Source: a virus
Direction: 5' to 3' (one strand)
Virus record (IMG/VR): IMGVR_UViG_3300033047_000016
DNA length: 64,000 nt
This document shows, in pieces, positions 23,752 through 38,165 of this stretch. The position numbers were made by a program, and so were the translations under genes. Numbering within the stretch: position 1 is the stretch's first letter; the number at the start of each line of letters is the position of its first letter. The notes beneath the pieces are model-generated. The model searched no databases. It was not told the origin of the DNA and was given only the letters and a program-made list of their open reading frames with translations.

Positions 23752-23825
23752 TGGTGCGCCCGGTGGGAGTTAAACCCACTTAAAACTGTTTTAGAGGCAG
23801 GTGCATTCCCCAATGCTACAGGCGC
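23752..23825 (-). tRNA. tRNA with CTA (amber-reading) anticodon, weak anticodon stem
   Basis: GCGCCTG/CGGGCGC acceptor, D stem GCAT/ATGC, loop CT-CTA-AA, T-arm GTGGG-TTTAACT-CCCAC, A73-CCA. Confidence 0.7.
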
Positions 23826-26653: not shown

Positions 26654-26725
26654 TGGTGGAGCTACGGGGTAACGATCCCCACCATCAACATTGCAAATGT
26701 CGAGTCCGTCCCATACGGTAGCCCC
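26654..26725 (-). tRNA. trnA: tRNA-Ala(TGC), atypical
   Basis: G3-U70, TT-TGC-AA, T-loop ATCGTTA, short D-arm. Confidence 0.75.
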
Positions 26726-26730
26726 AAACT

Positions 26731-29244: not shown

Positions 29245-30207
29245 TTAAGCCCGAACAATTCCTTCATACACGTCCTCAACGAAGTCGTCAATCCATACGC
29301 GGTCGGGCGCGGCAGAAAGTGGGGATTTATCCCCTATTGACTCCAGAATCTCAACTTTTTCGTCGAACGTGTCTAATATCTCGTCGATGTGCACCTCTCC
29401 GGCCCTGATTTTCATCAAGAATGGAAGGTTGACGCACGGAAATTCGATGAATCCGTGTTTGAACAACGAAATCCCTTGATCAGCGATGCGTACAGCGTGG
29501 TACATGGCTTTGCAGTCCATGCCACCAGCATCGCGCGCCGCCTTGGCTCTTTTACCTGCTTCGTCTACCGGTTTCTTGTAAATACGGTAGGCTTCAGCAC
29601 ACTTAACGGTTTCTGGGCACTGTCGCCCATATACATCAAGGTACGGTATGATGCGACCGTCTGGTTGCACCTTATCAACGAATTCTACTCCGTCGATGTC
29701 CTCAAGAGCACTTGCTATATCTGCAACCTTTTTGATCGTGCCATTGCTGTTTGCATACATGGCCAACAAAGCTACAACTGCTTCATACGTCTCCAAACGC
29801 TTGCCGCGCATCGAATATCTAACCGCCTGTCCCTTGCAATATCCAACGAACGCCTTTGAGTTGTTGTTGAGGATTTTGTCTCTATTCTGCACGATCCTGT
29901 CCCAAACCCAATTCTCTAGGATAAGTTGGAGTGGATCGGTTTCGATAAATAGCAGTTCAACCGGAATGGTCTGCATATCTGCTGCCAATTGCAGATAACG
30001 CTGAAGCTCAAAGCTCTCTACGTCAACATCGTCGGCGTCGTTTCGTGTCTCCTTCGATCCAGTAGACTGGCTCGTGATTAATGTTCTCTTCCCCAGAAGA
30101 ATTTGTCTTTTCGTGGGGAGGTGCACTGCTTTGTAGTCGCGATCTGAGTCTGCGGTATTTGTACCGTACAGGCGCGATCCTGCCAAGCATCTGAAAATCT
30201 CTGTCAT
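29245..30207 (-). CDS. DNA polymerase beta-superfamily nucleotidyltransferase (T4 NrdC.11 / RlaP-like)
   Basis: GSRLYGTNT..SD.DYKAV.LP, ELLF, KAFVGYC..QA..Y, DCKAMYHAVRI, L.KIR.G. Confidence 0.85.
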   Translation of the reverse strand: MTEIFRCLAGSRLYGTNTADSDRDYKAVHLPTKRQILLGKRTLITSQSTGSKETRNDADDVDVESFELQRYLQLAADMQTIPVELLFIETDPLQLILENWVWDRIVQNRDKILNNNSKAFVGYCKGQAVRYSMRGKRLETYEAVVALLAMYANSNGTIKKVADIASALEDIDGVEFVDKVQPDGRIIPYLDVYGRQCPETVKCAEAYRIYKKPVDEAGKRAKAARDAGGMDCKAMYHAVRIADQGISLFKHGFIEFPCVNLPFLMKIRAGEVHIDEILDTFDEKVEILESIGDKSPLSAAPDRVWIDDFVEDVYEGIVRA

Positions 30208-30477
30208 GGTGAAGCCCTTTCTATGTTGTGTAGGCGAGCAGTTTTACATGATGCCCAGCATAAGGTCAAAACAGAATTAACTGCCCTAACTCCACCACCA
30301 TGCCAAGTCTGGGGCATGGACCAAAGTTCCCGGTTACGCGTCCGGGGTGCATCTGACGTGTGCACCGCTCTGTTTATATCGCCGATCCGATTTTTTAAAT
30401 TACCCTCGAATTACAGGCTTACGGTCGGTTGTCAAGGGCGCTCCATTTAAAGTATGCGCCGCCGGTTCCGCAAAATA

Positions 30478-30885
30478 AGGTGAGGGATTCTGTTGCTAGG
30501 TTCCCTCGGACCCCCTCACTGATCGGCGTCTGCATTTAATCCTTACGGATTAAGCTGCGATTGCCATTCCAGTAGGTGCTGCATTTACATTTGCTGCATT
30601 TACTTAAGTTCACAGTCCTAAGACTATTTGCCCAGATAACGTTTAGGCCAACCCGACACGCCGCTTTCCCTATTCCATCCTGTCGATCCTAGTTCGCCCC
30701 CATCAAAAGACCCTTTCGAGGCATCGCCAGAATACCCCGCATGGAGCACCTAACCTCTTCCCTCTCCGCGAGAAACGGATGTGAGCGTAATGTCTCTCCC
30801 TCGTAAGGGCCTTATGGTGGAGGCGTCGGGTACTGCCCCCGAGTCCAGAAATGTCTTCACGATTGAAGATATACGTGTGTTTCGT
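30478..30885 (-). ncRNA. ssrA: Two-piece (circularly permuted) tmRNA; tag AANVNAAPTGMAIAA
   Basis: Acceptor piece ...GACTCGGGGGCAGTACCCGACGCCTCCACCA ends at 30815; coding piece starts GGGGGCGAACTAGGATCGAC at 30701 (G3-U70); tag ORF 30597-30550 ends AIAA-stop; AACCTAGCAACAGAA motif. Confidence 0.92.
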
Positions 30886-30940
30886 ACGAACCAATATAGA
30901 GTGATTCGTTTAGTATGTCAACCTCTGAAAAGCCTCAAAG

Positions 30941-31204: not shown

Positions 31205-31849
31205 CTACGCGGCAGACCGCTGTGGAAACGTCCACATACGGATACTGCAAACTTCATCGGCATCGCGGCGCTTTATGCGGCGCATCGTCAATGCCATTTC
31301 CCGGTGACCTACGGCAGCTTCCAGAGCATCCTCTGCTTCAGGGATCGTATCCCATCCACCGCAGAAATAGCTCTCGGAGTGAAGGCCGTTGTTGGTTACC
31401 AGAAGTTCATGTCCTGCGAGCATTACATGATACACACGGTGCGCTTCGCCAGCGTATCGTGCAACCATGAACTCACCGTACACAGAGTCCGCTAGGAACT
31501 TGGCCGCAGCCAATCCGCGCGTTCCATCCAGAAGAGTAACAGCAATGCCGTGGTTCTTGGTGACCAGAACAGGCTGACCCCAACTCGGATGGTGAATACC
31601 ATACATGGCATCGTTTTCGACGCTGGAACCTATCCACAAAACTTTAGTGTTGAAGCCTGACACAGTCATAAGCTCGTCGCCAATTTCAATGTCTTCTACT
31701 GCGACCGTGCCGCCGTTAGGCGTTGACAGTCGGGTGCCTTCGGCAAAACAAGTTACTTCAGCATCATCGTGCCCGAAGCCGTTACCGTTGCCGTGTGACG
31801 TGTGGCCTACGCCGTTTCCATTATCGTGTCCATTACCAGACATGTGCAT
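31205..31849 (-). CDS. Hint-domain (bacterial intein-like, Hint_2) protein with short Gly/Asn/His-rich N-terminal peptide
   Basis: T|CFAEGT.L.TP.G...VEDI..GD...T, V.WIG, LVT.NH, VYHVML..HE....NG..SES. Confidence 0.85.
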   Translation of the reverse strand: MHMSGNGHDNGNGVGHTSHGNGNGFGHDDAEVTCFAEGTRLSTPNGGTVAVEDIEIGDELMTVSGFNTKVLWIGSSVENDAMYGIHHPSWGQPVLVTKNHGIAVTLLDGTRGLAAAKFLADSVYGEFMVARYAGEAHRVYHVMLAGHELLVTNNGLHSESYFCGGWDTIPEAEDALEAAVGHREMALTMRRIKRRDADEVCSIRMWTFPQRSAA

Positions 31850-32155: not shown

Positions 32156-32359
32156 ACAAAATAGTCTAAATAGACACCCAGCATCAATACTGGCGTATTA
32201 ATAAATATCCAGCCCCTCCACTCCGCAGAGCCATCACGCTGATATCATCCTCCCGACTTGAACCGGGCTTACCGACCCACGTGCCGTAGCGCCATGGGTG
32301 TGGTGTATTTGGGAACATAAGCTATATGGCCTGCCCTGTCAAGGGCGGTCGGTCTATTT

Positions 32360-33228
32360 AGTAGCCTGAGAATACAGCGTACAGTGAGAACCTTCTGGAC
32401 CGTACCAAACCCGTTTCACAGGGCATGTTAATCCTTCTTCCACATGCGTGCCGAAGCTACACACGTAGTCCTCAATGGTGCGATTTATAAAGGTCTCGCG
32501 TTTGACCTGTCACCATGTGCTACTCGTCTGTTGATCCTCCGCCTGCCTTCCGACAGTTATTCACCGCTAAGCGCTTACGTTTTCTCTTCAAACAAACATC
32601 GTCGCCTTGCGAGCTATGATGCACCGTGTTCCAAAAGGCACGGTATTAACCACCTTTCACACATGACCGAACTAGTCTTTTGCTTTTATATGACGTGAAG
32701 GATTTGAACCCTCTCCGACAGCGTTGAAAGCTGTTGCTCTACCAATGAGCTAACGAAGTTAACCCCAAAGATGTGCTAGTCCGATTGCTCCGAAGGTTTT
32801 TGACCCTAAGAATACAACACACCTCATGTCTTTCGGCTTGCGACCTAATTAACGGCTCTTCAGGTCTCCGGGGATTATCTCCCCTTATTCCCTTGAACTG
32901 CATGCTGCCCTCTGCCGCGAAGCATCGAACTAGTCATGCCACCTATTGATCATCATCGCTCGTCCGGCTGGCATGTCATGAGCGCAGTCGCCAAACTGCT
33001 TCTATCCACCCTTTTGGGGCTTCAATTATCCTTTCGGACACATGACCCAGACTTACCGACTATCGCCACTCTGGTAAGTGACGCACAACGCTACGGATAT
33101 TCCCGGCGTCGTCGATCTAGGCTTGCATAAATGGACTGTTTCCAGCGGATACTTGGGAAGCACCCTTTGGGCCTGTTGCCAGACTTACCCTTGAAGACCT
33201 CATGCGGCCTTATTCCCGAAGGAACTCC
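32360..33228 (-). ncRNA. GOLLD-like large structured RNA (~870 nt) with embedded tRNA-like domain
   Basis: Own promoter TTGACA-17-TAGAAC (33260-33232); ORF-free; many GNRA/UUCG hairpins; blocks GUGUGUUGUAUUC..GCACAUC, GCAAAAGACUAG, GAAAGGUGGUUAAUAC, CGUAAGCGCUUAGC, GAGUAG, GGUUCUCA..UAUUCUCAGGC recalled as GOLLD-like; tRNA-island context. Confidence 0.65.
32690..32759 (-). pseudogene. tRNA-like domain with TCA (opal-reading) anticodon inside the GOLLD-like RNA
   Basis: GCTC-ATTGGTA-GAGC, ACAGC-TTTCAAC-GCTGT, GAGGG-TTCAAAT-CCTTC; acceptor stem only 3 bp, no CCA. Confidence 0.7.
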
Positions 33229-33287
33229 TGTGTTCTACATCAACTGGAAAACCTTGTCAACAGTTAATTGCAGAAAATTCAAACTTT

Positions 33288-33812
33288 TTAATTTCGCATA
33301 AATTGGCTCGTGCCACCTTTCATCTTCAGGTAGATGGAGTTGAGCCATCTTTCCTGCTTCTCGCTTATCGTTGACCCCCTAACTTCGGCTCGGTTAGCCA
33401 TATCGTGAATGAACGCCGCCTCGTTGGTTTTCAAACTATTTGATTTTGCGTTACATTGGAACGCTTGGCTACGCCAACCGGGGATTGTTCCACCGGAATG
33501 ATATCCGTCTGGGTTGGCTGCAAAAGGGTCAACGTTCGGTTGCCCAGACAGGCCAGAGGGTTGCACGGACCTTACGTCCCGGTACACGATCTTCTCTTTG
33601 ACAATAATTCGATCACGATACACGATCTTTTCGCGATACTCGATACGAGTTGCTCCGCCTTGCATCTTGGCCAAGTCATGGAAGTCGAAATTCTGTGCCA
33701 CCAACAACCTCTGTATGCCTCGTGCTGCGGCTACCACCTCACCATCTTTGTCAGATGCTAGGAGAGGAATGAGCTTTTGCAGCTTAGTGTGACTTTTACT
33801 TGTCAGGTTCAT
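33288..33812 (-). CDS. Hypothetical protein
   Basis: 174 aa, AAGGAG RBS; KL..LLASD.DGEVVAAAR N-terminus and SEKQ.RWL..I C-terminus. Confidence 0.75.
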   Translation of the reverse strand: MNLTSKSHTKLQKLIPLLASDKDGEVVAAARGIQRLLVAQNFDFHDLAKMQGGATRIEYREKIVYRDRIIVKEKIVYRDVRSVQPSGLSGQPNVDPFAANPDGYHSGGTIPGWRSQAFQCNAKSNSLKTNEAAFIHDMANRAEVRGSTISEKQERWLNSIYLKMKGGTSQFMRN

Positions 33813-34309: not shown

Positions 34310-34762
34310 TTAGAAACTGTAGCCGACACGAATACTGAACAGATCAGTCGAAACGAAGTCAACGCGCGTATATTTCGCACCGATGAATACACCGTTGTCG
34401 AACTGATAGTCAGCACCGATAGACCCGGTCACCCCATCATCGAAGTTTGTGTCGCCGTAGCCAACGGCGGCATATGCCAGAACATCGCCGAAGTCGTATC
34501 CGACACTGATGTCGATATAGCTCAGCCCATCGTCGTTGATGTCGGACACACCAACTTCCACGCCACTTACGACGTTTCCATAGTCTTGACGATAACCAAT
34601 AAACAGTCCGCCAGTGGTGTCGTTGAACGTGTCGGCATCAACGTTGTTTGCTGAAGCTCCGACGTAAAGGCCCGTCCAATCTGTGGTGTCGGCTGTTGCC
34701 AGTGCAGGCATTGCCATGAGTGCTACAGCGGCTGCTGCGATCAGTAGAGTTGCTTTTTTCAT
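34310..34762 (-). CDS. Outer-membrane beta-barrel (porin/OmpA-like) protein
   Basis: Signal peptide, DWTGLYVG, G.F.GY..D.G..V.GVE, C-terminal RVGYSF. Confidence 0.85.
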   Translation of the reverse strand: MKKATLLIAAAAVALMAMPALATADTTDWTGLYVGASANNVDADTFNDTTGGLFIGYRQDYGNVVSGVEVGVSDINDDGLSYIDISVGYDFGDVLAYAAVGYGDTNFDDGVTGSIGADYQFDNGVFIGAKYTRVDFVSTDLFSIRVGYSF

Positions 34763-34833
34763 TGTTTGGTCTCCTATTTGTTTCATGTGTGTTGGTGTTT
34801 AAACCAACAACAATATCATGTCAATAGGAAATT

Positions 34834-37382: not shown

Positions 37383-37457
37383 TGGTAGGGAGGGCAGGAT
37401 ATGAGCCTGCACACACTGGGTATGACCCCAGCCGCTATTCTTTTTGCGTACCTCCCC
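37383..37457 (-). tRNA. Atypical tRNA with CAT in a non-canonical loop
   Basis: GGGGAGG/CCTCCCT acceptor, A-rich D-loop without GG, T-loop CTCATAT, ACCA. Confidence 0.55.
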
Positions 37458-38091: not shown

Positions 38092-38165
38092 TGGTGTCAC
38101 CGATCAGATTCGATACTGATGTTTCTCACACTAAAGGCGAGTGTCCTGTCTTAGACGAAAGCGAC
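38092..38165 (-). tRNA. tRNA with TTA (ochre-reading) anticodon, Glu-like body
   Basis: GTCT/GGAC D stem, CTCGC-CTTTAGT-GTGAG, ATCAG/CTGAT T stem with 8-nt loop, ACCA. Confidence 0.68.

Follow-up and report, generated by a model that had tools for sequence, protein, structure and literature searches.

What does a transfer RNA (tRNA)-shaped segment with a stop-type triplet at its anticodon position do inside a much larger non-coding RNA? This question is raised by a locus in a 64,000-nucleotide stretch of viral DNA (IMG/VR record IMGVR_UViG_3300033047_000016), which was analysed over its whole length and which we call the window. An earlier note on this DNA had proposed that the locus encodes a GOLLD-like giant RNA, that this RNA holds a tRNA fold with the triplet UCA, and that the fold is possibly engaged with ribosomes at UGA codons. 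We find that a genuine GOLLD RNA is encoded here, and every feature of the family that could be tested here was present. It is probable that this RNA carries a permanently tethered tRNA mimic, which would be neither released nor charged and whose UCA triplet would be incidental.

The minus strand from 32825 to 32363 matched the GOLLD model of Rfam (RF02032) with a score of 163.0 bits against a gathering threshold of 150 (cmscan, E=6.7e-44), and the match covered model positions 1-416 of 416. All helices of the 3′ domain and both strands of the pseudoknot aligned to the model with few non-canonical pairs. The Rfam model spans the 3′ domain of GOLLD only; the 5′ domain, which is outside this model, was located at 32826..33226 (minus strand) by full-length alignment with phage GOLLD loci (nhmmer, MAFFT) and by RNAalifold. 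A distant BLAST search with positions 32300-33400 gave six phage records, namely the roseophages DSS3_MAL1, MD18, DSS3P8 and vB_RpoS-V10, the Caulobacter phage BL57 and the Sinorhizobium phage Phosso. The GOLLD score was above the gathering threshold at the matching locus in all five cultured-phage relatives retrieved, and these five loci could be aligned with the window over about 950 columns. The 5′ domain, of around 400 nucleotides, is itself structured: 41 of its 46 predicted pairs showed compensatory double changes among 22 diverse sequences. The whole unit thus extends over about 864 nucleotides, from around 33226 to 32363 on the minus strand, and the open reading frames (ORFs) that overlap it are all of the chance type, with at most 84 amino acids. 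These data confirm, now with a covariance model above its gathering score, the class that the earlier note had assigned to the RNA, as well as its description of an ORF-free unit of about 870 nucleotides; the strand had not been given there.

The tRNA-like segment is located in the variable linker of the 3′ domain. The first hairpin of the 3′-domain model, of the P14 type, corresponds to 32768..32825 (minus strand; cmscan, model positions 1-60), and just upstream of it is an invariant junction motif that was kept in all six aligned phages. The hairpin is followed by the 5′ flank of the linker, UGGGGUUA (32760..32767, minus strand), which was delimited by linker comparison and whose GGGUU core is retained by most homologs, whether a tRNA insert is present or not. 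The insert itself occupies 32690..32759 on the minus strand. Beyond it, an A-rich 3′ flank, AUAAAAGCAAAAG, and the conserved 3′ core of GOLLD together fill 32363..32689 (minus strand; cmscan, model positions ~130-416); this core includes the pseudoknot strands, and its terminal hairpin ends in ...UCUCAGGCU. The insert is therefore internal to GOLLD, as had been noticed from the letters. Its place is not at the border of the 5′ and 3′ halves, where it had been put, but after the first hairpin of the 3′ domain.

The fold of the insert was assessed with the Rfam tRNA model, ARAGORN, a cloverleaf parser, covariation and folding energies. The segment 32759-32689 matched the full Rfam tRNA model with 51 bits, and ARAGORN read its anticodon as tca. 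The three arms are intact, with four of four pairs in the D arm, five of five in the anticodon arm and five of five in the T arm, and the nucleotides typical of tRNA are present at U8, A14, G18G19, T54-T55-C56 and A58. The anticodon loop has the canonical seven nucleotides, UU-UCA-AC, with the triplet at 32727-32725. The acceptor stem, however, is reduced to four pairs of seven (A-U, C.A, U.C, U.U, C-G, G-C, U-A), three of which are contiguous, and this short stem brings no folding energy (−15.5 kcal/mol, versus −15.8 kcal/mol for the three arms alone). On the 3′ side of the stem the sequence continues as A-UAAAAG and no CCA is encoded. The 33 other tRNAs of the window, scanned in the same manner, all have six or seven acceptor pairs of seven, and CCA is encoded in at least 32 of them. 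The insert thus lacks three features that would be expected of a functional tRNA: a seven-pair acceptor, an encoded 3′ CCA and an anticodon conserved among orthologs. The tRNA fold with complete arms, a three-pair acceptor and no CCA, which the first inspection of the sequence had recognized, was recovered by Rfam, by ARAGORN and by the cloverleaf parser.

We then compared the insert with its counterparts in other GOLLDs. The homologs were gathered by motifs that are independent of the particulars of this insert: the junction motif upstream of the linker was scanned in viral, metagenome and genome contigs, and a motif made of the T-loop and the linker flank was scanned in viral contigs. Acceptor pairing was measured by a neutral cloverleaf finder anchored on the three arms only. 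The samples were 18 aligned inserts and 46 further distinct inserts from IMG/VR, that is, about 64 distinct inserts. An initial scan of viral contigs with a loose core motif had given mostly chance matches, five of the 32 loci being GOLLD at the gathering score. In the 18 aligned inserts pairing was complete (100%) in the D arm and 98.9% in each of the two other arms, anticodon and T, and 16 of the 21 pairs showed double changes. None of 500 shuffles attained the observed values, and slid controls were 30-44% paired. The acceptor was paired to 75%; pairs 6-69 and 7-68 were always kept, and pairs 1-3 were broken in six to nine of the 18 inserts. The nucleotides of the elbow were nearly invariant. 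The 46 further inserts had three to seven acceptor pairs of seven (mostly five or six), with CCA in a single insert and U33 in 45. The tRNA-like insert is thus a trait of the family, seen across the roughly 64 distinct homologous inserts. The core of the window's insert shares a median identity of 71% (maximum 83%) with other GOLLD inserts and of 48% (maximum 54%) with the tRNAs of the window. The closer resemblance to GOLLD inserts points to an old module that was inherited vertically. We also considered whether the insert had been captured recently from the phage's own set of tRNAs, and rejected this, given that the best identity to an own tRNA was 54%, versus up to 83% among GOLLD inserts.

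The anticodon position is far more variable than the arms. At least 15 different triplets were found there among homologous inserts, GUU, UUU and CUU being the commonest in the 46 further inserts. The loops of nearer relatives carry UAG (L062), UCC with A33 (BL57), CUU (L042), UCU (Phosso) and UCU with G33 (MAL1 and MD18), and the loop of L010 has eight nucleotides. The L010 insert (positions 389-462), from a 98-kb roseophage-like contig of IMG/VR, has six of seven acceptor pairs and the anticodon loop CUGAUAAA. Two further eight-nucleotide anticodon loops, in L097 and L182, were noted in a held-out set described below. Some lineages have reduced the insert: in DSS3P8 (L003, 1960-2010) a hairpin like an anticodon arm and a remnant of the T-loop are all that is left, and the GOLLDs L038, L039, L041 and L043 of the same clade, which come from contigs of 40-465 kb, mostly of jumbo-phage size, have a short hairpin only. 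These remnants indicate that the insert is dispensable in some lineages.

A separate observation concerns a subgroup of GOLLDs on freshwater metagenome and viral contigs (L044, L065, L048, and also L045 and L054), in which a near-constant tRNA body is combined with very different anticodon arms. The loops of L044, L065 and L048 are complementary, over six, six and nine nucleotides respectively, to the nucleotides that directly follow the terminal hairpin of GOLLD. An apparent compensatory change was seen in this pairing (TATGAA/TTCATA versus TACGAA/TTCGTA); the complementarity is interrupted by one mismatch in L045 and is absent from L054.

The UCA triplet would correspond to UGA, and we analysed how this codon is used in the window. 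TGA ends 35 of the 72 long ORFs and is the commonest terminator, and the genes pack tightly under genetic code 11. Recoding of TGA was rejected, as reading TGA as sense instead of under code 11 fused no convincing genes. The only notable pair of ORFs in the same frame across a TGA (8243-8241) is 8747-8241 / 8240-6471, and these are two ordinary genes, the downstream one having its own Shine-Dalgarno sequence and ATG. Furthermore, stop-type triplets occur in about two of the roughly 64 distinct inserts, for a chance expectation of 3/64. The triplet is most likely one state of a freely varying position, and would be incidental rather than an opal-decoding anticodon. The proposal that the domain engages ribosomes at UGA consequently finds no support here: the homologs carry at least 15 triplets, TGA is the main terminator and no recoding was seen in the window.

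Two free-standing genes of the same phage also carry stop-type anticodons. A tRNA-like gene with CUA at ~23752-23825 (minus strand) has a complete acceptor (7/7) and CCA, and a weak anticodon stem with three Watson-Crick pairs; its ortholog in phage DSS3_MAL1 is annotated as 'tRNA-Pyl', and the two acceptors differ by compensatory changes. A second tRNA-like gene, with UUA, at ~38092-38165 (minus strand), has six of seven acceptor pairs, CCA and an eight-nucleotide T-loop, and its tRNA-Glu-like body gives it the appearance of a decayed tRNA-Glu copy. ARAGORN at relaxed threshold made many extra weak calls, 'tca' and 'cta' among them, none of which was counted as a gene. Together, UCA on the GOLLD insert, CUA and UUA match all three stop codons, and genes of the window end normally at all three. 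This pattern was not shared by the relatives examined: MAL1 has only CUA, with UCU on its GOLLD insert, and DSS3P8 lacks all three and retains only the relic of an insert. For this reason we did not build upon the pattern and left a small probability to a role related to stop codons.

Such a role could take several forms. In the first, which is very improbable, the insert would be cut out by host RNase P and a 3′ endonuclease, be completed by the CCA-adding enzyme and read UGA as a functional opal-suppressor tRNA. The 51-bit score over the full tRNA model, the canonical loop with U33 and A37 and the intact elbow nucleotides would suit a suppressor, as would the intact acceptor and CCA of some family members and the CCA ends of the two free-standing stop-anticodon genes. 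The acceptor, with four of seven pairs, three of them contiguous and no gain in stability, and the absence of the CCA found in at least 32 of the 33 other tRNAs argue against it; the use of TGA as the commonest terminator (35/72), the independent Shine-Dalgarno sequence and ATG in the lone same-frame pair, and the many other triplets in orthologous inserts point in the same direction. Moreover, excision would split GOLLD in two. The bolder idea of the earlier note is an action of the tethered mimic itself on ribosomes at UGA. With or without an extension to release or elongation factors, or to a set with CUA and UUA of which the insert would be the opal member, it appears hardly credible to us. 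It can draw on the presence of all three stop anticodons in one phage, on the conservation of the CUA gene in MAL1 with compensatory acceptor changes, and on the GOLLD-ribosome pull-downs cited by Kretsch et al. (PMC12286853). It is weakened by the lack of conservation of the three-stop pattern, by the near-chance number of stop-type triplets (about two of some 64 inserts, near 3/64), by the resemblance of the UUA gene to a decayed tRNA-Glu copy with an eight-nucleotide T-loop, and by the published cage structure, where an interior linker is difficult to reconcile with access to the A site. A related proposal takes UCA as the opal member of a phage set that covers all three stops, with CUA and UUA on free tRNA-like genes that carry CCA and UCA on GOLLD, and that acts on terminating ribosomes, on release factors or on host defence targeting them; we grant it only a slight chance. 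If true, this three-stop set would provide the first concrete function for GOLLD.

Two further explanations do not involve stop codons. The anticodon loop may be a docking element whose pairing partner, within or between protomers, is an internal loop rich in purines in the 3′ domain (~32600-32590, UUGAAG), and this would account for the variation of the triplet. The first signal was encouraging: six of 12 lineages had at least five contiguous complementary bases at one alignment position, versus a background of about 7%; the site was the top one of an unbiased scan (A1-HMM columns ~691-716, where HMM is a hidden Markov model), with a scan-wide p of ~0.012 by permutation of the loops; and BL57 and L042, whose loops are unlike, both matched the same target. 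However, a pre-specified test on 45 new, held-out loop/target pairs gave three hits versus 1.4 expected (p=0.15), and no match was seen in the four held-out sequences that are nearest to the window. L062, one of the two closest relatives of the window's insert, has none either. The target is also conserved in GOLLDs devoid of a tRNA insert, and pyrimidine-rich loops facing a purine-rich target inflate the number of chance matches. Since the held-out replication failed, the first signal was put down to composition or chance, and docking is improbable. The insert could otherwise be a decaying relic of an embedded tRNA that was once functional, without present role and in the course of being lost, which we consider unlikely. 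The dispensability of the insert, as illustrated by the arm and T-loop remnant of DSS3P8 and the short hairpin of the jumbo phages, is in line with a relic, and so are the decayed acceptor and the drifting triplet. The decay is, however, uneven: here none of the 14 arm pairs is broken, versus three of the seven acceptor pairs, and across 18 lineages the arms are 99-100% paired through many compensatory double changes, with a nearly invariant elbow. The uneven decay and the compensatory changes argue for purifying selection on an L-shaped core.

The reading that we favour is thus that of a GOLLD RNA with a tethered tRNA mimic. The minus strand would be transcribed, probably under a promoter specific to this gene, into an RNA of about 864 nucleotides; the gene is part of an island of tRNA and transfer-messenger RNA (tmRNA) genes. 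By analogy with the solved GOLLDs, the RNA would form a multimeric cage made of RNA only, with the variable linker turned towards the inside. The linker module of this lineage would be an old, vertically inherited element derived from a tRNA. Selection would keep its L-shaped core: all three arms (D, anticodon and T), the nucleotides of the elbow and the inner end of the acceptor, two or three pairs long. The outer acceptor pairs and the CCA, on which RNase P, 3′ processing and charging depend, would have been lost. With this loss the module would most likely never be released or aminoacylated and would stay covalently tethered. Arms and elbow are kept while acceptor, CCA and triplet vary; whatever its function, the tethered module probably depends on the shape of a tRNA, as given by these two parts, rather than on decoding or on charging. 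We infer the absence of processing and charging, the assembly of a cage and the display of the module in its interior. As to the suggestion of the earlier note that the domain can be neither excised nor charged and is displayed by the RNA, it fits the contrast between well-paired arms and an often broken acceptor among the homologs and the absence of CCA; what it says of processing and charging is best kept in the conditional.

Several observations weigh against this reading. The minimum free energy fold of the insert with its flanks (97 nucleotides) differs from the cloverleaf, with a z score of −1.3. Such a failure to give the cloverleaf is common for tRNAs and hence uninformative, so that the support for the fold comes from covariation and covariance-model scores. 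The anticodon loop of the insert is fully canonical, with seven nucleotides and both U33 and A37 kept. Since bacterial RNase P accepts certain mismatches in the acceptor, the insert may undergo some cleavage. The freshwater subgroup of GOLLDs retains six or seven acceptor pairs of seven together with an encoded CCA, which suggests that the insert may still be processed in some lineages; the loss of processing in the present phage would then be a derived state, as far as can be judged from sequence alone. Finally, the match of the insert to the third stop codon is an unexplained coincidence, of roughly 1 in 64 when taken alone.

A promoter of its own is plausible for this GOLLD. A promoter-like site was read from the sequence at 33232..33260 on the minus strand, with TTGACA (33260-33255) and TAGAAC (33237-33232) separated by 17 nucleotides. 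It ends about six nucleotides upstream of the point where conservation starts, and in the alignment its −35 box is in register with TTGAC/TTGAG of the roseophage homologs. A simple scan for the sigma-70 consensus did not call this site, because its −10 hexamer is without the final T; TAGAAC presumably corresponds to the alphaproteobacterial −10 consensus TANAWC. Of the 'promoter-led' unit that had been announced, the two boxes and the alignment of the −35 box therefore stand, and the promoter itself, missed by the scan, can be called plausible only. At the other end, a hairpin without U-tract folds directly after the GOLLD 3′ end (32330..32348, minus strand), and is possibly a weak terminator or an end-protecting hairpin. 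BL57 and Phosso have a hairpin and T-run terminator at the equivalent place. The promoter scan also returned a site at 32314..32342 (minus strand; TTGACA, 17 nucleotides, TATGTT), which overlaps the post-GOLLD hairpin and faces the downstream tRNA-Met (32155-32080).

The window belongs to a tailed phage distantly related to roseophages of the DSS3P8 type, and it encodes a large terminase as well as portal and major head proteins. Besides the insert, it encodes 33 tRNAs (ARAGORN) and a two-piece tmRNA, all on the minus strand, so that the phage tRNA island in which the RNA was said to reside does exist. Its gene order tRNA-Met/Pro, GOLLD, tmRNA, nucleotidyltransferase is also that of the roseophages. 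The tmRNA, just downstream of GOLLD at 30459-30925 (minus strand), is of the two-piece (permuted) alpha type with the tag peptide AANVNAAPTGMAIAA, and is followed by the gene of a nucleotidyltransferase of the RlaP family, which is associated with RNA repair (29248-30243, minus strand). The succession of GOLLD, tmRNA and nucleotidyltransferase is kept in the roseophages MAL1 and DSS3P8. Two protein genes interrupt the island on the same strand. One, between tRNA-Met and the tmRNA, encodes a Hint-domain protein (31208-31849; PF13403, E=1e-15) and may be a self-splicing or homing-type element; the other, just upstream of GOLLD, encodes an outer-membrane beta-barrel protein (34313-34786; PF13505, E=3e-12). 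Two irregular tRNAs were also noted on the minus strand, at 37386-37457 and 26655-26726: one of the pair was found by Rfam only (35.6 bits) and not called by ARAGORN, and the other, a second tRNA-Ala(UGC), does not show a regular discriminator and CCA at its 3′ end.

GOLLDs of Mycobacterium tRNA arrays with a tRNA or pseudo-tRNA in the linker were reportedly described by Morgado et al. 2020 (cited in PMC12990946). For the pseudo-tRNA of a Mycobacterium GOLLD, Northern blots did not reveal a transcript of its own (PMC6582537). GOLLD RNAs form cages of 12 to 14 protomers (PMC12286853, PMC12990946): the structures are a 14-mer of env-38 (PDB 9MEE), in the map of which the linker is unresolved (PMC12286853), and a 12-mer from Streptococcus agalactiae (PDB 9L0R, listed in PMC12990946). 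The linker faces the interior of the cage (PMC12286853), and 'inhibited storage' has been proposed (PMC12990946). A tRNA or pseudo-tRNA in the GOLLD linker is thus already published (PMC6582537, PMC12286853, PMC12990946), contrary to the novelty that the earlier note implied.

The present RNA shares with the Mycobacterium tRNA-array GOLLDs (PMC6582537) its family, the position of the insert in the linker (J13/15), a tRNA array of phage origin and the idea of a tRNA-shaped piece without separate expression. It differs by its host lineage, a roseophage-related phage of a probable alphaproteobacterium, by its UCA triplet and by an acceptor of four pairs in seven, which is among the weaker ones of the family; these differences are of detail and not of kind. 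With the solved cages (9MEE, 9L0R) it has in common the conserved 3′ domain, which the Rfam model matches helix by helix, the separate structured 5′ domain and the place of the linker. A tRNA-shaped domain with conserved elbow and arms within a larger RNA is likewise found in tmRNA, in the YrlA-type Y RNAs (RF02553) and in the tRNA-like structures at the 3′ ends of viral RNAs. However, tmRNA and many of the viral structures have a functional acceptor and CCA and are charged, while this insert has neither, and no Ro60-type or other protein partner is indicated for it. The likeness to the suppressor tRNAs of TAG- or TGA-recoded phages is confined to the phage origin and the stop-type triplet at the anticodon position: in the present phage no in-frame TGA or recoding was found, TGA is the main terminator, and the insert lacks the acceptor stem and CCA.

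The 'opal anticodon' of this RNA is thus not evidence of stop-codon suppression. The locus adds to the GOLLD family a new lineage close to cultured phages, with relatives among those of roseobacters, Caulobacter and Sinorhizobium, which makes experiments on GOLLD feasible. For the family, the comparison would set a constraint on function: the L-shape of the tRNA appears to be selected, and variation would be free at the acceptor end, in the CCA and in anticodon identity.

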